Below are positions 3,441 through 42,053 of a DNA stretch of 64,000 bases, piece after piece. The translations under genes were made by a program, and so were the position numbers. The stretch covers positions 19,591 through 83,590 of the IMG/VR virus record IMGVR_UViG_2903352716_000007. The stretch is one strand, 5' to 3'. The notes below the pieces were generated by a model, which was not told the origin of the DNA, did not search any database, and was given only the letters and a program-made list of their open reading frames with translations. Every line of letters begins with the position of its first letter. Position 1 is the first letter of the stretch. Source of the DNA: a virus. Lineage: Duplodnaviria > Caudoviricetes.

Positions 3441-4514
3441 ATGACAAAGGATCAAGGAACGCCGCTGCAAGGAGAAATCCAGGCACTGATAGAAAACGGT
3501 CTCGATTTCCTCAATAAGGCGCGAAAAGAGCTGGAAGCTAAACAGTATAAACACTCAATCGTAAATTTCTGGACAGCGGTTGAGATCATGCTGAAAGTCC
3601 CATTGGTTTACGAGCATTGGACTCTGGTCTGCAGCAAAAAAAACAAACCTAAAAAGCAGGACTATCTTGATGGCGATTTTCAGTCTGTCACTTACGATGA
3701 AACACGGGATCTGTTTCGTGACGTGTTAGAAAAACCTATCAGTAAAGAGACACATGAGGCCTTTAATAAAGTCCGAAAACATCGGAATCGCGTCGTGCAC
3801 TTTTACCATTCATCATTCTCCTCTGCAGATTTGGATACAATCTTGAAAGAACAGGCGGATGCATGGTTTGCGTTAAACCGTCTGATGCGGGACGAATGGC
3901 AAAATATATTCGGTGATAATCACAAACACATTCTCGCTTCCGGTGAGACTCGTCTTCTTCAGGGAAGCAAGTTTTACTCCACAGCACGGCTAAAACAGGT
4001 TGAACCTGAACTGAGAAAGCGGGAAAAGGGAGGTGCTGACATTCAGTGTTGCCCTGATTGTGGACAGAATGCGGTTGTTAACGAACCTATCCACACAGGC
4101 AATCAGTCAATGCCTGAACTTATAGTTGGTCGATGTCTCGTGTGTGAGAGCATCAACCGCCAAGTTCGTCTGCACTGCCCAAGTTGCGGAGAGATCATGT
4201 CATGTGACGAAGGTGAATTGAGTGTAGAGTGTGATTCGTGCCATGACAGATTTGAACGATACGAACTGCTCGGTGATTATTTACTTCAAAATACTGATGA
4301 GGATGAATATTTACCGGCTGGTTGTACTAATTGTATGAGTCCTGAATCGGTGGCTAAGTTTGGTAATGGCTATCTGTGTACACGATGTCTGAACTTTTAT
4401 AATCAAATGGTTATTTGTAACTTCTGTGATCATATGAGTGATGCAGTCCCGGAATTCAGCCATATCAGAGGATGTGAGTTCTGTGACGGTGACAAGCGAT
4501 ACCTTGATGATTAA
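3441..4514 (+). CDS. HEPN-domain protein with multiple zinc ribbons
   Basis: HEPN-like helix FLNKARKELEAKQYKHSIVNFWTAVEIMLK and RxxxxH motif RNRVVH; eight CxxC pairs in the C-terminal half. Confidence 0.7.
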   Translation: MTKDQGTPLQGEIQALIENGLDFLNKARKELEAKQYKHSIVNFWTAVEIMLKVPLVYEHWTLVCSKKNKPKKQDYLDGDFQSVTYDETRDLFRDVLEKPISKETHEAFNKVRKHRNRVVHFYHSSFSSADLDTILKEQADAWFALNRLMRDEWQNIFGDNHKHILASGETRLLQGSKFYSTARLKQVEPELRKREKGGADIQCCPDCGQNAVVNEPIHTGNQSMPELIVGRCLVCESINRQVRLHCPSCGEIMSCDEGELSVECDSCHDRFERYELLGDYLLQNTDEDEYLPAGCTNCMSPESVAKFGNGYLCTRCLNFYNQMVICNFCDHMSDAVPEFSHIRGCEFCDGDKRYLDD

Positions 4515-5467: not shown

Positions 5468-5490
5468 ATAAATCGCCCTTCATAATAATA

Positions 5491-5506
5491 CTGTATATGT
5501 AAACAG
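5491..5506. promoter_or_regulatory. LexA (SOS) box
   Basis: CTGT-ATATGTAA-ACAG within an extended inverted repeat 5483-5514, 24 bp upstream of the UmuD-like start. Confidence 0.9.
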
Positions 5507-5539
5507 TATTATTATTCTTGGTCATGGTGTCAATCCTGG

Positions 5540-19300: not shown

Positions 19301-20119
19301 ATGAATATTCCCGCTTTCCCATTACCATCCCGACCAAAAAAAGAGATCAGTTTTCGAATGCCCACTGTGGCGGATTCCATGGAATACAGCGACAGCCAGG
19401 AGGAGCAGGAAGAAGTCACTACCACTGAATACCTGAATGCCATGCAGCCTGGCGAAGTTAATGACTCTGCCCTATGGACGGCGCAGGACCGTCGGACCGC
19501 GTTATGGTGGATTTACATCAATTCCCGCACGGACACCGTGACCACATTCCCTTATGAGTGCAAGCACTGCGGGGAAACTCATTTCTATGATTGCGACCTG
19601 AGAGCGCTGTCTGAAACTGCAGAGTTGCTGACGGAAGAACCAGTTCGCCGCGTCACGGTGCCGGTTAAAGGCGTTCCTACAGAGTGGACGCTAAAGCCGC
19701 TGGATGGTCGGGGTATTTGTATGCTCGAAAAACTCCGATTCATGCTGCCTGACGAAGCCGACCCTGAATACAACAACGCTGTACGGCGAATGCGCCTGGC
19801 TGAAATAGCCCTGCATACGGCGCTTGACGATGACCCTGAAGACTTTGAAGCCGCTGCAAACCGTCGCTTCGACCTGATTCAAAGCATGACCACTGATGCG
19901 GAATTTGTGCCGCTGGTGGCCCATGTTCACTTAATGCAGCGCGACTTACGGCATGGACTGGAAGTGAGCATTGATCGCGGCGCTGTCAGCCTGGTTTTAC
20001 CTCCGCACCACTGTGAAGCTGAGGGTAAGGAGGGTATGGCAACACGGTTGCTCGTTCCCTTTCGGCCTGGCGCATTCATTCCAAACTTTAAATCTGAGTG
20101 GCTGGCTAACAATTATTAA
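19301..20119 (+). CDS. pmgB: Tail assembly/baseplate hub protein (PmgB equivalent)
   Basis: Start ATG 19301 lies downstream of the late promoter; CxxC motif; directly before the tape measure. Confidence 0.65.
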   Translation: MNIPAFPLPSRPKKEISFRMPTVADSMEYSDSQEEQEEVTTTEYLNAMQPGEVNDSALWTAQDRRTALWWIYINSRTDTVTTFPYECKHCGETHFYDCDLRALSETAELLTEEPVRRVTVPVKGVPTEWTLKPLDGRGICMLEKLRFMLPDEADPEYNNAVRRMRLAEIALHTALDDDPEDFEAAANRRFDLIQSMTTDAEFVPLVAHVHLMQRDLRHGLEVSIDRGAVSLVLPPHHCEAEGKEGMATRLLVPFRPGAFIPNFKSEWLANNY

Positions 20120-36973: not shown

Positions 36974-37259
36974 AGTGACGATGCCGGGGGATAAATCCGG
37001 AGTAGTTGAGTGTAGCGAGACTGGCGCACTGGCGATCGTCGAAGGGGGTATTACCCTGGACGATATGCGCGCCAGCCTTCACGGTGTGCGTCCGAACTCT
37101 GCGGTCGGAGAAGTGAACTCGCTGGATGCTGAGGCTCACCTGGTCCTACGCAGCCTGGAAAGCGCTGGCTGGCTGGTGGACTGGCCTGAAGTTGAAGGCG
37201 GAGACGATGATCCGGACGACGATGAAGGCATACCGAATGTAGACAACACGGTCAACTAA
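36963..37259 (+). CDS. hxr: Hxr equivalent
   Basis: Likely ATG 36963 (MRIKVT) overlapping the ddrB end; synteny. Confidence 0.55.
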   Translation: MRIKVTMPGDKSGVVECSETGALAIVEGGITLDDMRASLHGVRPNSAVGEVNSLDAEAHLVLRSLESAGWLVDWPEVEGGDDDPDDDEGIPNVDNTVN

Positions 37260-37322
37260 GAGCAAAGCCCACGTTATGTGGGCTTCTTTTTGTCACGGGG
37301 TCAGGATGCTCGCCAGCGGGGT

Positions 37323-37343
37323 AAAGTACAGACCGGTTACTGT
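37323..37343 (+). promoter_or_regulatory. Late promoter (endolysin)
   Basis: AAAGTACAGAC-cggt-TACTGT. Confidence 0.75.
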
Positions 37344-37372
37344 TTTGGCTCAGAGCAAAAAGAGGAAAAAGC

Positions 37373-37864
37373 ATGAGTCAACCTATTGATCCGCGTTGGG
37401 TCGCGGAAGCCCGTAAACACATTGGTCTGCGGGAAATCAAAGGCCAGGAAAACAACCCTGAAATCGTCCAGATGTGGAAAGATATCAAGCGTGGCGGCAT
37501 CAAAAACGACGAAACCCCGTGGTGTGCGGCGTTCGTTGGTTCGATGCTTGAACGTGTGGGCATCAAGTCTACCCGCTTCGAATCTGCCCGAAGCTACTCA
37601 TCCTGGGGTGTAGCCCTTCACGATCCGGCGTATGGCTGCATTGTCACGTTTACCCGTGACGGCGGCGGTCATGTTGGCTTTGTCGTTGGTCAGGACGCAA
37701 ACCGTAATCTGTTAGTGCTGGGTGGCAACCAGGGCGATGCCGTGAATATCCGGGCGTTCCCGCGTAGCCGTGTGACAAGTTACCGCTGGCCTTCCGATGA
37801 ACCCGGACCGGAGTCCTACAAGCTGCCTAACCTGAATGGGCAGACGTCCACCAGCGAAGCGTAA
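37373..37864 (+). CDS. NlpC/P60-CHAP-like peptidoglycan hydrolase (TIGR02594-type), probable endolysin
   Basis: PRWVAEARKHIG, DETPWCAAFV, GGGHVGFV, VLGGNQGDAV. Confidence 0.85.
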   Translation: MSQPIDPRWVAEARKHIGLREIKGQENNPEIVQMWKDIKRGGIKNDETPWCAAFVGSMLERVGIKSTRFESARSYSSWGVALHDPAYGCIVTFTRDGGGHVGFVVGQDANRNLLVLGGNQGDAVNIRAFPRSRVTSYRWPSDEPGPESYKLPNLNGQTSTSEA

Positions 37865-38788
37865 TTACCGAAAGCCTTTTGGTTTTTTGCTGTAATCCAC
37901 GTTTGCGTAGCTTGAACGGAACATAACGTCTTCTCGCTGGTGGGTGGAGCTTTTAAAGACATCCATCAGCTTGATGAACATGTGTTTGTAGCGCTTCTCG
38001 TTGGCGCTGAGTGCTGACAGTCGTTCCTGGTAGTTGCGTTCTGCGGTGTTGAGCTGGCCCTGTATCCGGGTCTGGTTAATTTGTTCATCCCACTGCGTCA
38101 ACGTTTTGCCCTGCGGCACTTCCGAGTTATCCACAGAATTAGTATCACCCGTCCCAATATTTATCTTTTCTTTCTGACTTTTAGAAGGGGGTAATATCTT
38201 GTTTTGTAGCGCATTCTGCGCCCCCTCTCCGGGTATCGTTTTGCGCCCCCCTGATTTGGTGAAAAGCACGGATGACGCGGCTTTCAAGGCGAAGGCCATT
38301 ACCTTTTGTTTCACTCTGCTGACAGTCTTCCGAAACAGGGAGATCGCCAGACAAAACAACATGGCCCCGCGTGTCAGTGTGCGCCTTGCTGTTTCAAGGC
38401 CAATTTTATCTTTGGGAATTTCAGACGTGAAAATAGCACGACCTGCAGCGCCGGATGTGAAGCGATCCAGTGTGGCGACAGAGACTTCTGCATCGAGGGC
38501 GAGCGTTTTACGGCTGGCATAGCAAACCCCTGTGTGTGATGGGTTCACTTTGTTGGCAATGCTGGCGGCAATCAGTTTTCCGGTGCGGCTGATAAGCGTG
38601 GCAGGGAGGCATAAAAAGGCGTGGCTGAGTTTGTACCCGGTGGGATAGCTTTTCTGAACCTCATTCCAAAGCGCGTTGTTGTCCATGCTGCGGTAGTGCT
38701 CAAAATCAGGTAGGTCGGCGCTGATCACATAGCCCTGCATATCAGTCCGTGGTTCCTTTGCGTTATCCATTTTTCTGTCTTTTTCCAT
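37865..38788 (-). CDS. repL: Lytic replication initiator RepL-like
   Basis: wHTH region GYKLSHAF...SRKTLALDAEVSVATLDR and C-terminal KGFR resemble recalled P1 RepL. Confidence 0.65.
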   Translation of the reverse strand: MEKDRKMDNAKEPRTDMQGYVISADLPDFEHYRSMDNNALWNEVQKSYPTGYKLSHAFLCLPATLISRTGKLIAASIANKVNPSHTGVCYASRKTLALDAEVSVATLDRFTSGAAGRAIFTSEIPKDKIGLETARRTLTRGAMLFCLAISLFRKTVSRVKQKVMAFALKAASSVLFTKSGGRKTIPGEGAQNALQNKILPPSKSQKEKINIGTGDTNSVDNSEVPQGKTLTQWDEQINQTRIQGQLNTAERNYQERLSALSANEKRYKHMFIKLMDVFKSSTHQREDVMFRSSYANVDYSKKPKGFR

Positions 38789-38916
38789 CGTTATATTGAT
38801 TCAGAAACCCTTCAGACGCGGGGCTTCCTGTCACTGAGTAACATTTGGTCAAAGATGATCGTGAGTGAGCAAAAAAAACACTTGAGTGCCGGGATCGGCG
38901 CTAGTAAACTGGACGC

Positions 38917-39126
38917 GAGTCTAGTTACCAGACAACAAAAGGCCTTCGCTCAGTAAAGAACGTTTCATCTTTGTTGGCGGGGGAAAGCGGTTAGGGTTAA
39001 TTCATATTTACCTCCTTATTGCCTCCTTGTTTGTTCCCTTTTTTGTTGGTCTTGGTTGCTGACTTATCACATAGAATTTCAGGGGTTTAACCCCCGGCAA
39101 GAACCACCTGGCAGGGTGGTTTTTTG
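38917..39126 (+). ncRNA. Candidate antisense RNA (~210 nt) over the repL leader
   Basis: TTGAGT(38882)-17 bp-TAAACT(38905); no ATG ORF; terminator AACCACC-TGGCAG-GGTGGTT-TTTT at 39102-39125; carries two CCTCCTT motifs. Confidence 0.6.
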
Positions 39127-39207
39127 CTTTCTGCGGGTAATATCCCCCACGCATTTACAAAAAGCACGATCTTTTTAACCATGAAGATCCGGATCGTCTG
39201 GAAATGG

Positions 39208-39236
39208 ATACTATTCTGATCTCCTGTTTTTGACAA
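39208..39236 (-). promoter_or_regulatory. Sigma70 promoter for the repL leader transcript
   Basis: Minus-strand TTGTCA-17 bp-TAGTAT, downstream of the pro terminator (39295-39316). Confidence 0.6.
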
Positions 39237-39335
39237 TGCTGTATTTATTTACACCTTAGTATTTATGTTATCTTTTGGTGGAAAAAGGGTATAAAAAACC
39301 GCCAGTTAAGGCGGTTGGGTTGAGACGGCAGGTGT

Positions 39336-40349
39336 TTATCGTTTAGGGCGCAACCAGAAAACGTCCTCATCACTGGCGGTCGTGACTTGTTTCCCCGGAT
39401 CGCGTTGGCGTGGCGGGGTATCGCCTAAAGGCAGACCGGATGATACATGCCCTGCAGCCGACTCCAGCATCGCAGACAGTACCTGAATGTCTTCCTCCGT
39501 TTCCATTCGGATCAGTGCCTGACGTTGCTCCTTGCTGATAAACACCGGCAGGTTGTTCAGCGTATCCCGCATAATGCGACGACGGGCTTTCGCCAGTTCA
39601 CCATTGCTTTCCAGCATGGCGTTTTGCTCATTAACCCGCGATTGCGCCTCTTCTAACCGGCCCCGTAATGCCCACACCTGGCTTTCAAGATGGCTGGTAT
39701 GATCCACGGCCTCAAACATCGCCTGGTCTTTCTGCAGGGTTTCAAAGTGATGACAAATGTCGATAGCGGCATTTGGGCTGAAGCCTGACTCAATCAGGGA
39801 TGCAATCATGATATCCGTGCGCGTATCGGCGGATTCCAGCATCAATGACTTTTTGTCCAGACTGATAAAGTTAGGTGTGGTCACGTAGTCGAAGCCATAG
39901 AACCCGGTGACAATCGAACGAACGGAACTGTCGTCGCCGCTGGTGGCCCAGCTCCAGCCGCCAGCCTTTGATGCCTCCATACCGCTGACGATCTGGCCTG
40001 GCTCAGTGTCCAGAATTTCCTGGGTGTGCGTGACTACCCCATCATCGTCTACGGATACCGAAAGGGTACGGTTTGAGGGGACATTCGTCAGGGTTACGGG
40101 CTTGCCTTCCACGACGGCTACGGATACTTCAGGCAGAGTAAGTTTGCCCGTTTTGGCGTAGTGCATAGCGCGGCGCCCGTGACCGTAATAGCCGTACATT
40201 TCACCGAGCGCGATACATTCCTGCACCGATGGGTTGCTGAAGGTGGCGCGAACGGACTTGAGAATGTAATTGCGCTCATTCTGTGGCGTGTGGCGGCGAA
40301 TAGTGTCCACCAGAGAAAAGCGATCAGTAACTGTTTTAAGTGATTTCAA
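39336..40349 (-). CDS. pro: Prohead protease/head-processing protein
   Basis: MYGYYGHGRR, GGWSWATSG, GFDYVTTPNF; follows the portal as in P1. Confidence 0.8.
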   Translation of the reverse strand: MKSLKTVTDRFSLVDTIRRHTPQNERNYILKSVRATFSNPSVQECIALGEMYGYYGHGRRAMHYAKTGKLTLPEVSVAVVEGKPVTLTNVPSNRTLSVSVDDDGVVTHTQEILDTEPGQIVSGMEASKAGGWSWATSGDDSSVRSIVTGFYGFDYVTTPNFISLDKKSLMLESADTRTDIMIASLIESGFSPNAAIDICHHFETLQKDQAMFEAVDHTSHLESQVWALRGRLEEAQSRVNEQNAMLESNGELAKARRRIMRDTLNNLPVFISKEQRQALIRMETEEDIQVLSAMLESAAGHVSSGLPLGDTPPRQRDPGKQVTTASDEDVFWLRPKR

Positions 40350-40364
40350 AATGTGCTCCGTGTA

Positions 40365-42053
40365 TTACTGTTGGGTCATAACGAATTTGGCGAAATTAAG
40401 CAGTTGCTCCCGGCTCCATGTCTCCGGGTTGCTGTCGTCGCCTTTTCCTGGAGTGGATTCGTACATCATGTCGTCGTGTTCAGAGGGGTCTTGAGTGGCG
40501 CTAAACTCCTTGATCATGGACTGCAGTGTTTGGTCATCCATCTTGAGTTGGTCGCAGAACAGGTAACGCATAAACGTCTCGCTACCCGCCAGTTTCGGGC
40601 TTTGCTGGATCTGGTCGAGAATTTGCGTGATGACGGCGATGAAGTTGGCGCGGGAATCCTGATCGCGGGCTTCTTCCTGCATCAGCGCGGTATTGATGGA
40701 ATTAAACTGTACGGTGTACGGTCGCTGGTTCGGCAGGTAGGCTTTGCCGTGTTTGTACGCCAGGTGAATATCTGCGATTCGGTAAATCGCATCACTACCG
40801 GCCTGTCGCAACCATTGCGCGCGGATCGCCGCCTGTATAGCAGTTTGCGCCCAGCCTCCTTCCCCCAGTCCTCCGGACATTTGGTCTGCCCATCCGAGCA
40901 TCGTCGAATCAATGCCCAGGCTTGAACACAACTGGCGCAGGTGAAACATCACGTCTTCAATTCCGTTGATATCCGCCGGAATGTACTGGGTATCAATCGT
41001 GACGTTGTTCTTCCCGTCACCCATTACCGGGATCAGGTGGTTTAGCACCGTTGGCATTGTGTTGGCTTGCAGCGAACGCCGTGACATAGCATCGCTGTTG
41101 CGCTTCAGTGACTGGCTTACCGTGCGCGTGTAGTTGGCGGCGTTTACCGGATCGAGGGTGCCGGTCGTCAGGGCGATCAGGCGGTCAATTTTGGCGGCGT
41201 TATAGCGGGTGGCTTTCAGGGCATTCAGGGCGCCGCAAAGGTTCATAAACGGTTCATATGAGTTCTCCAGAAAGCTGGTGCCGTAATTCTGCGTTTCGGC
41301 GAGGGTGTGCTGGGCTTGTTCGGTTAATAGCGAATAGCCGCGCGTACCCGTTGTGACCGGAATGATATTCCCCGATGGTGTCCAGAAAGGGTTTTTCATC
41401 GCCACGATTTCCCACGGATTAGCCAGCATTCGTTGCATCGTGTCCGGGGCTAGAAGGTAATCACCGGCGAACCCCGCCAGTGTGCCGCCTTTGTTGAACT
41501 CCTGAATGAAGTACGGGAGGGTGTAATAGGATGACTCAATATTGATGATGCCGCGCCCTGGCTCACCGTAGGGACGCATATAACCCACGCCAAAAATTGC
41601 CATGAGCAATCCCCATGACGGCAAACCGGTGTTAATCATTTCCCCCAGGTCGTCCATTAGCTCGTTGCAGCGCGCTACGGTTTCTTTGTCGCCGGGATCT
41701 TTTGCCGCAATGGTAAAGGCCAGCCCGGTACGTTTGCTGGGGGATAGCGCTTGCGCGATATGGATATTCAGCGCCTGTGAGACGGTTGCGCTTTTCGACA
41801 TTTCTTCCAGCACGGTATACCGGGACAGTCTGTCCAGCGGCAGCTCAAGATTAATGCCTATGTGATCCGCTTGTGTGGTCAGTTCTCCGGGGGCGTCCTG
41901 CCGGTTGCCCGTCATAAATGACAGTCCAGATCGCGAAACAACGTTGTGACCACTACTGATGGGGAGTTGTGCCAGTGGCGTACTCGGCGCACTGGAGAAC
42001 AGTTTTTTCAGGGCAGCGAGTGGCCCGGAGTTCGTCGATTTTCTGTTAGCCAT
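40365..42053 (-). CDS. prt: Portal protein
   Basis: 562 aa; divergent from darB and followed by pro, as in P1. Confidence 0.8.
   Translation of the reverse strand: MANRKSTNSGPLAALKKLFSSAPSTPLAQLPISSGHNVVSRSGLSFMTGNRQDAPGELTTQADHIGINLELPLDRLSRYTVLEEMSKSATVSQALNIHIAQALSPSKRTGLAFTIAAKDPGDKETVARCNELMDDLGEMINTGLPSWGLLMAIFGVGYMRPYGEPGRGIINIESSYYTLPYFIQEFNKGGTLAGFAGDYLLAPDTMQRMLANPWEIVAMKNPFWTPSGNIIPVTTGTRGYSLLTEQAQHTLAETQNYGTSFLENSYEPFMNLCGALNALKATRYNAAKIDRLIALTTGTLDPVNAANYTRTVSQSLKRNSDAMSRRSLQANTMPTVLNHLIPVMGDGKNNVTIDTQYIPADINGIEDVMFHLRQLCSSLGIDSTMLGWADQMSGGLGEGGWAQTAIQAAIRAQWLRQAGSDAIYRIADIHLAYKHGKAYLPNQRPYTVQFNSINTALMQEEARDQDSRANFIAVITQILDQIQQSPKLAGSETFMRYLFCDQLKMDDQTLQSMIKEFSATQDPSEHDDMMYESTPGKGDDSNPETWSREQLLNFAKFVMTQQ

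Follow-up and report, generated by a model that had tools for sequence, protein, structure and literature searches.

Known lytic replicons and the region under study

Phage P1's lytic replicon is the closest precedent for the locus analyzed here, the leader and promoter region of a putative replication gene in a 64,000-nucleotide (nt) stretch of viral DNA (the window; IMG/VR virus record IMGVR_UViG_2903352716_000007, record positions 19,591–83,590; Duplodnaviria, Caudoviricetes). The P1 record (NC_005856) shows a promoter, PkilA/P53, with the operator Op53 and three Dam sites, and a second promoter, PaskilA/P53as, together with the point at which an RNA antisense to kilA, at its 5′ end, begins. 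A 13-bp terminator lies 180 nt downstream of the P53as start, which matches the size of the P53as antisense RNA upstream of kilA–repL reported by Heinrich et al. (1995, Nucleic Acids Res 23:1468), as cited in PMC9948254. The closest sequenced phage to the window is D6 (MF356679, repL = orf20), whose portal protein is 64% identical. An earlier reading of the window from its letters alone, here called the original prediction, had taken its P1 background from the immI operon and the C4 antisense RNA, an account that omits the kilA–repL promoter P53/Op53 and the known P53as RNA. To our knowledge, countertranscript control of a lytic replicon has been proven in P1 only.

We propose, with a probability of about 0.62, that the region governs the lytic replicon in a plasmid prophage of the D6-like (P1-family) kind, in which the initiator is a strongly diverged RepL and a predicted countertranscript opposes the sense leader. 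Compared with the known systems, the layout reads as a variant of countertranscript control of the lytic replicon and not, as had been suggested, as a different kind of RNA switch. What is new is a very divergent RepL lineage, a precisely bounded countertranscript and a clade-specific minigene. The features on which this proposal depends are the following.

37865–38788, minus strand: diverged repL-like gene encoding 307 amino acids (protein P0001), assigned from a profile match, a C-terminal motif and its genomic slot
39208–39236, minus strand: predicted sense promoter, −35 TTGTCA (39236–39231), 17-bp spacer, −10 TAGTAT (39213–39208), found by promoter scan, with the transcription start expected near 39201
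38871–38910, plus strand: predicted antisense promoter, A8 (38871–38878), −35 TTGAGT (38882–38887), 17-bp spacer, −10 TAAACT (38905–38910), recognized by its footprint in 14 leaders
38918–39125, plus strand: predicted countertranscript of about 208 nt without an open reading frame (ORF), bounded by the conserved promoter and terminator
39082–39125, plus strand: 3′ domain of the countertranscript, a hairpin GGGGU-UUA-ACCCC (39082–39094) followed by an intrinsic terminator, from the terminator scan
39316–39297, minus strand: intrinsic terminator behind the stop codon of the upstream head-processing gene pro, from the terminator scan, conserved in clades A and B and dividing the late operon from the repL control region

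Read along the minus strand, the order is the pro terminator, an AT-rich block, the sense promoter, four GATC sites, a pair of hairpins that acts as a terminator on the plus strand only, an A/C-rich tract, two Shine–Dalgarno (SD) sequences, a two-codon minigene, about 120 nt of further leader, a hairpin with a T8 run, about 80 nt and the repL-like ORF. Conservation of the leader was judged from 14 related leaders that fall into four clades: clade A comprises the window together with Citrobacter plasmids and four of the IMG/VR contigs; clade B comprises L013 and L014; clade C, the Leclercia leaders L002, L015 and L010; and clade D, L026. The leader had no blastn match among 50,697 phage records, no related loci were found in a search of genome contigs, and a scan of those contigs with the terminator pattern returned unrelated generic terminators only.

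The gene behind the leader is a very distant repL

Single-sequence and shallow-profile comparisons of P0001 with P1 RepL were insignificant. P0001 had no match in NCBIfam or in Pfam (the set searched lacked PF26868), PHROGs and PADLOC gave nothing useful, tblastn found no match in the 50,697 phage records, and a profile search of the PDB returned 0 matches. At the family level, a profile that takes in the remote members P0019–P0021 (A6) was aligned by hhalign with the P1 RepL family (A5) at 94.7% probability (E 6e-8) over 198 columns. The N-terminal winged helix–turn–helix stretch aligns between the P0001 family and P1 RepL, and P0022 and P1 RepL each show weak matches to HTH_36. Outside the range aligned by hhalign, an extreme C-terminal (I/V/K)PxGFR(G) is common to the P0001 family (KPKGFR, IPSGFRG, IPKGFRGYQE and IPHGFHG), the P1 RepL family and D6 RepL (IPAGFRG in P1 and D6; IPTGFRE and VPKGFRG in other members). 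When P0001 was compared with the ESM Atlas, the RepL cluster (PF26868) was the top match by structure and ranked third by features. D6 carries its annotated repL in the same slot, directly downstream of prt–pro; in P1, repL stands elsewhere, behind kilA. Searches of the window and of the complete Citrobacter relative (85.6 kb) turned up no other RepL homolog, and both have RepA-like, HrdC-like and Dmt-like genes.

Because the profile match, the C-terminal motif, the ESM Atlas ranks, the D6 slot and the lack of any other RepL agree, the label repL given to the gene in the original prediction is right, and its product is a very distant member of the RepL family. A putative function, that of a RepL-type lytic initiator, is thereby assigned to an orphan protein family in phage-plasmids of Citrobacter, Leclercia, Hafnia and Atlantibacter. 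The family comprises 17 clusters in a set of 5.8 billion proteins, nearly all on contigs of about 80 kb, and 6 representatives among 1.8 billion. Its start codon in the relatives is the ATG at 38770 (MDNAKE...), in frame with the first ATG of the window ORF at 38788. The AT-rich dip inside repL is mild (38100–38199, 41% GC), and no iterons or clear origin features were found inside the gene.

Three observations concern the gene and its surroundings. A 2-nt difference in the Citrobacter relatives (L001:5632–5660) makes the ATG equivalent to 38788 open a 7-codon upstream ORF, MEMKQNG*, that overlaps the real repL start. The most distant relatives of P0001 (25–31% identity; L017:3201–4217 and L018:5001–6032) are found on plasmid-like metagenomic contigs, where they adjoin ParA-type partition genes, a ProQ/FinO-like gene and toxin–antitoxin pairs, with no phage structural genes nearby. 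On the other side of repL, a CHAP/TIGR02594 lysin gene (37373–37864, plus strand) comes to an end one base short of the stop codon of repL (37865), and no terminator separates the two genes.

Conserved promoter footprints and a terminator predict a countertranscript

Both promoters and the plus-strand terminator are kept in all 14 leaders across the four clades, while the spacers and flanks vary. The sense promoter is the sole sigma-70-like match of the scan in 38500–39600 and is 97% identical within clade A; across the four clades, its hexamers read TTGTCA, TTGCTA or TTGCCA and TAGTAT or TAGGAT at a fixed spacing of 17 bp, with unrelated spacers. The minus-strand promoter proposed earlier at 39236–39208 was thus recovered by the scan as well as by conservation. 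The antisense promoter shows the same kind of footprint: TTGAGT is invariant, the −10 element is TAAACT or TAGACT, and the two are always 17 bp apart (14/14 leaders), with six different spacers between them and an A-rich stretch upstream.

By its sequence, the predicted countertranscript would complement the sense leader from about +73 to about +284. Its stretch contains neither ATG nor GTG, and the fold of the whole RNA has a z score of −2.9. Clade A leaders give, from the same boundaries, predicted lengths of 188–210 nt, those of clade B 163–190 nt, and those of clades C and D 108 nt. The 3′ domain is its best-conserved part, with 98% identity in clade A and a folding energy (dG) of −25.3 kcal/mol (z −3.4). 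The terminator was called by the scan at 39099–39124, with a core stem at 39102–39121 and T6 at 39120–39125, and in the Leclercia plasmids blastn aligns nothing but the hairpin and terminator. The shape of the hairpin is kept with differing inner pairs (GU/AC, GG/CC, CU/AG, CU/GG and UC/GA), and one terminator pair varies between A–U, G·U and G–C, of which G·U is valid on the plus strand only. When the domain was aligned with a covariance model, 89% of the cells were paired, compared with 40–65% in slid controls. Neither the MAFFT nor the covariance-model alignment places the first hairpin of all clades in one register, so the covariation counts under-report it. The structural evidence for the 3′ domain is suggestive and not statistically strong, and the case is carried by the promoter and terminator footprints. 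Together these make an antisense RNA without an ORF, read from the plus strand across the SD–minigene part of the leader, a well-supported prediction; phylogenetic footprinting here agrees with the plus-strand promoter (38882–38910) and terminator that the original prediction had given as the bounds of an RNA of about 210 nt.

Three further results concern this stretch. The ColE1 RNAI model (RF00106) matched with 28 bits against a gathering score of 47 (E 0.039), aligning with the terminal hairpins alone. A long-range pairing between 39091–39103 and 38971–38983 was rejected, as it is not kept in the Citrobacter relatives. In clades B to D, the stretch from the antisense promoter to the start of repL contains another plus-strand terminator (L002:~4240–4290, L015, L010, L013 and L014), which belongs to a segment of about 200 nt that is lost in clade A.

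The SD–minigene block is specific to one clade

The part of the leader covered by the predicted countertranscript contains two features that had been placed at the center of the original prediction.

39018–39059, minus strand: A/C-rich, G-poor tract with SD1 AAGGAGGC (39028–39021), from the clade A alignment
38997–39017, minus strand: SD2 AAGGAGGT (39017–39010), 4-nt spacer AAAT and minigene ATG AAT TAA (39005–38997), read directly from the sequence

Both SD sequences and the Met-Asn-stop minigene are present as described, and they differ in conservation. SD2 and the minigene form an island of 96% identity across clade A, compared with 60% in the adjacent SD1 tract, which has 18% gaps and indels. 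SD1 is deleted in L003, L008, L009 and the soil relative X2 (95–99% identical; deletions within 39018–39044), and X2 retains SD2 and the minigene. The doubling of the SD is therefore not a conserved property, and SD1 appears dispensable. Clade B has AAGGAGG (L013) or AAGGAGC (L014) without a start codon, and clades C and D are without the whole block. In clade C a different ORF of 3–4 codons with its own SD (MVTG*, MMTG* or MTE*) is found further downstream, before the second plus-strand terminator and outside the antisense-covered part.

The minigene therefore seems to be under some constraint in the Citrobacter-type clade A only, on its translation or on the RNA pair. Conservation in D6-like genomes had been named as a check of the original prediction: in the 14 leaders the promoters and terminator are conserved throughout, and the double SD and the minigene are not; being lineage-specific, these cannot be the core of a common mechanism. 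Most likely the minigene would serve as an accessory ribosome-loading site on a long untranslated leader, or as part of a sense–antisense recognition element.

The start of repL itself has a poor SD and lacks GGAGG. This bears on the two CCUCCUU anti-SD motifs of the countertranscript, which had been thought capable of acting in trans: both are present in the window, one of the two is kept in clade A and none in clade C. An action in trans has no support: at the repL start the motif would find no GGAGG as a partner, and other clades have lost it. A 48-aa ORF (39154–39008) that ends beside the minigene was rejected because its start is not conserved in the Citrobacter relatives. Where clade A has the minigene and then TTAACCCTAACC, L014 (~2040–2080) has five tandem CCCTAAG heptamers, the last of which merges into AAGGAGC.

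Further along the leader, one more feature had been read as a GC hairpin and T8 run before repL.

38871–38906, minus strand: imperfect sense hairpin (38906–38879) followed by U8 (38878–38871), overlapping the antisense −35 element and A-tract

The hairpin and T run are there, and the hairpin is weak: its dG is −9.1 kcal/mol (z −1.7), 13 of 200 shuffled sequences fold as well, it is not among the terminators called by the scan, and no counterpart exists in clades C and D. The letters of the stretch that are invariant are exactly the antisense −35 and −10 elements, and the T8 run is the A-tract upstream of that −35, which suggests that the stretch is more readily accounted for as a piece of the antisense promoter. 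It could possibly act as a weak attenuator in clades A and B.

Comparison with P1, D6 and other antisense-controlled leaders

As in P1, a RepL-type initiator in the window stands behind a presumably regulated sigma-70 promoter with clustered Dam sites, and a convergent promoter a few hundred base pairs downstream would give a discrete noncoding countertranscript (180 nt in P1; about 208 nt predicted in the window). In both, the antisense RNA ends in a hairpin and intrinsic terminator by the sense promoter, and its presumed role is to restrain lytic replication. The differences are considerable. The window has no kilA, which in P1 precedes repL, and its leader is untranslated for 415–430 nt, compared with about 75 nt in P1. 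Its predicted antisense RNA would end about 75 nt before it reaches the sense start, whereas the P1 RNA crosses the promoter and operator. The P1-type C1 operator is replaced by another operator-like core and a LexA-box-like motif upstream of the −35 element. The two RepL proteins are related at the profile level only, and the target of the countertranscript in the window clade contains the SD–minigene.

D6 also has repL immediately after pro on the same strand. As in clade C, its sense −10 element is TAGGATCGCG-like and has GATC sites next to it; a hairpin with an A run, a short way downstream of the promoter, would form an antisense terminator; and a strong convergent promoter is predicted. 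The latter (L178:4760–4890) reads TTGAAA-17-TAAAAT, matches the consensus at 10/12 positions and lies opposite repL inside its first codons, about 95 nt from the terminator; it predicts a countertranscript over the repL start that is absent from the annotation of the D6 record. D6 differs from the window in that its RepL is clearly of the P1 type (99.7% to the P1 family profile) without BLAST similarity to the window protein, its leader is about 100 nt long, and its predicted countertranscript of about 95 nt covers the repL start codon. Moreover, c4, a1b1, icd and ant directly follow D6 repL and are missing from the window. Rfam searches of the leader region, of the window as a whole and of the complete related plasmid found no C4 RNA, while C4 and a1b1 were found in D6 as a positive control; tblastn with the P1 and D6 Icd and Ant proteins was negative in the window and the complete relative, and neither contains a KilA homolog. 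The absence of c4, icd, ant and kilA, noted earlier for the window, thus extends to the complete 85.6-kb relative.

Taken together, countertranscript control appears to be a conserved design principle across P1, D6 and the window lineage, even though RNAs, leaders and operators have been replaced. Relative to the P1 and D6 versions, the window lineage is set apart by its long untranslated leader, by a predicted countertranscript that falls short of both the sense promoter and the repL ribosome site, and by the SD–minigene in one clade.

Two other groups of systems resemble the SD–minigene part. Lambda bar minigenes (AUG AUA UAA or UGA) contain the rare AUA codon and cause peptidyl-tRNA drop-off. 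Like them, the predicted minigene of the window has a single sense codon between start and stop codons, behind a strong SD on a phage transcript, but its codon is AAU (Asn) and not the rare AUA, and it lies in an antisense-covered leader and is conserved in one clade only. In plasmids R1 (CopA/tap–repA) and ColIb-P9 (Inc RNA/repY–repZ), as in the window, an antisense RNA targets a rep leader that contains a short ORF with its own SD. By contrast, the mini-ORF of the window is 210 nt from the rep start and would not be coupled to it in translation, neither a pseudoknot nor an activator element was seen, the predicted antisense RNA is two to three times longer, and the Rep family is unrelated.

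A model for the countertranscript and its alternatives

Based on these comparisons, a simple model would have the sense promoter at 39236–39208 produce a leader of about 415–430 nt that continues into repL, and the convergent promoter produce a countertranscript that ends in the hairpin and intrinsic terminator about 75 nt downstream of the sense start. The countertranscript would keep the lytic replicon silent unless sense transcription is strongly induced, through interference by convergent transcription over the 284-bp overlap, through a leader duplex and its processing, or through both. A threshold would thereby be set that only a strong induction of the sense promoter could overcome, much as the P53as RNA restrains kilA–repL in P1. 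The countertranscript cannot mask the repL ribosome site because this site lies about 130 nt outside the overlap; it would probably lower productive sense transcription by collision and may also pair with the leader and trigger its processing.

One small RNA sequencing (RNA-seq) run from one study, on a strain that is 100% identical, bears on this model. A contig spanning the leader, pro and the 3′ end of the portal gene (38820–40944) has a mean depth of 43.7, compared with 3.6 at 38646–38820 and none assembled at 38202–38645, a gap that is not evidence of silence; on the lysin side, 37000–38039 has a depth of 18.4. The contrast between 43.7 over the leader contig and 0–4 over the repL body gives a weak hint that far more RNA is present from the leader than from the repL body. 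On the lysin side, RNA contigs extend to about 38040–38200, antisense into the 3′ end of repL, which suggests that plus-strand lysin transcripts fall short of the terminator at 39099–39124.

Several results weigh against the proposed control by countertranscript. The antisense promoter matches the consensus at 8/12 positions, below the threshold of the scan. Covariation in the 3′ domain did not exceed that of shuffled alignments (2 compensated pairs in four clades), and the covariance model built from this domain (R1) had no match in the P1 or D6 loci; because it finds nothing there, the parallel with P53as is architectural and not one of sequence homology. The AlphaFold2 model of P0001 was unusable (predicted local distance difference test score 38). 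The RNA-seq depths are unstranded averages over contigs, with the leader averaged together with pro, and resolve neither strand nor transcript ends. Finally, the plus-strand terminator could in principle serve to stop read-through from the lysin gene, although the lysin-side RNA contigs end near 38040–38200.

This last point leads to the view that there is no regulatory antisense RNA at all. The plus-strand hairpin and T run would then do no more than shield the pro–portal late operon from plus-strand read-through, such as that of the convergent lysin gene. What looks like a conserved antisense promoter would serve to bind a protein or as an element of the sense RNA, and the SD–minigene would be the fossil of a lost upstream gene such as kilA. 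The lysin gene does abut the repL stop without a terminator of its own, the second terminator of clades B to D implies that plus-strand read-through matters in the region, P1 has kilA between promoter and repL, and the covariation statistics are weak. But TTGAGT and TAAACT at exactly 17 bp with six unrelated spacers and an upstream A-tract constitute a promoter footprint, the lysin-side contigs end 900 nt short of the terminator, an antisense RNA is proven at the equivalent place in P1 and predicted in D6, and a fossil would hardly be the best-conserved 24 nt of the central leader. We consider this explanation very improbable, and give as little weight to another in which the SD2–ATGAATTAA block is an untranslated recognition element of the RNA pair. 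A hairpin of the countertranscript would present AAUUCAU, with a YUNR-type UUCA, for a first loop contact, and the resemblance to a ribosome site would be incidental or would merely keep the segment unstructured. Antisense systems such as CopA/CopT and RNAI/RNAII begin with loop contacts, the fold of the whole RNA pairs the complement of SD2 with GGUUAGGG and leaves AAUUCAU in a 7-nt loop, and the conservation is equally explained by constraint on either strand. The local hairpins are nevertheless weak (antisense −4.6 to −7.1, sense −1.3 to −5.4 kcal/mol) and differ in shape among clade A members, no covariation supports them, and clades B to D have no equivalent.

A working minigene switch, leader-peptide-type control cut down to two codons, is the remaining alternative, and an unlikely one. 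Ribosomes that load at SD2 and read Met-Asn-stop would shield the C/A-rich, G-poor leader from Rho or RNase E or keep the hairpin–U8 from forming, and the antisense RNA, by blocking SD2, would abort sense transcripts before repL. In its favor, SD2 is near-ideal in strength and spacing (GGAGG, short spacer, ATG), the block is much better conserved than the neighboring tract, which the soil relative has lost while retaining the minigene, the sequence immediately upstream is C/A-rich, the SD at the repL start is poor, tiny ORFs recur in these leaders, as the different mini-ORF of clade C shows, and clades A and B have the downstream hairpin and U8. On the other hand, clades B, C and D lack the minigene and retain the promoters, terminator and repL; the mini-ORF of clade C lies outside the antisense-covered segment, so the logic would not be common to the family; the attenuator is weak and unconserved; and no substitution pattern separates a coding constraint from one on the RNA, translation itself being a prediction. 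Confined to the Citrobacter-type clade, the idea would make the minigene a real ribosome sensor, with the countertranscript deciding whether SD2 is loaded and hence whether the leader survives Rho, RNase E or attenuation as far as repL. We regard this version as rather doubtful; if true, it would give a bar-like minigene its first natural regulatory job, as the leader-peptide control of a replication initiator stripped to Met-Asn-stop. In either case, the clade-specific SD–minigene is a compact natural test case for a regulatory role of two-codon ORFs, and for the preferred countertranscript model the conserved promoter–terminator pair supplies exact coordinates for testing.

Candidate inputs at the sense promoter

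Two groups of sites surround the sense promoter and may place it under the control of a repressor, LexA and Dam.

39239–39262, plus strand: operator-like block with a LexA-box-like CTGTATTTATTTACAC (39239–39254) and a C1-operator-like core CCTTAGTAT (39254–39262), just upstream of the sense −35 element
39168–39221, no strand assigned: cluster of GATC (Dam) sites at 39168, 39186, 39192 and 39218, around and just downstream of the sense start

The LexA-like box abuts the sense −35 element without overlapping it. In clades C and D the box is a full CTG-N10-CAG whose left arm reads TACTG; it is a perfect CTGT-N8-ACAG in three of the four leaders and CTGG-N8-ACAG in L026, while in clades A and B, including the window, the box is degenerate, with CTGT-N8 followed by a right half ACAC or ACAT. 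The sites at the sister-clade promoters hint at a direct SOS input into lytic replication. The core adjoining the box reads CCTTAG(A/T)AT. It belongs to a 13-mer, AAAGCCTTAGAAT, of which the window has four copies at 0–1 mismatch, and the core of this 13-mer, CCTTAGAAT, is exact at this position in L001, L003, L008, L013, L002, L015, L010 and L026, L014 being the exception among the related leaders printed. A search of the window with the consensus of the P1 C1 operator gave 0 matches, and the 13-mer with its CCTTAG(A/T)AT core is a candidate C1-like operator. The palindrome TGTAAATAAATACA, also considered as a repeated operator, was rejected since it is not enriched.

Elsewhere in the window, a canonical LexA box, TACTGTATATGTAAACAGTA (5489–5508), lies just upstream of a 109-aa minus-strand ORF (5467–5138) that looks to be of the UmuD′/HumD type, the same arrangement as in P1 humD.

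The GATC sites keep their positions relative to the terminator in all 14 leaders, and their cluster at the sense start is the third densest in the window. Two clusters are denser, each with 5 sites in 100 bp: one at ~653, by the RepA-like gene at the start of the window, the other at ~57909, close to the packaging genes. They correspond to two Dam-rich sites of P1, oriR and pac.

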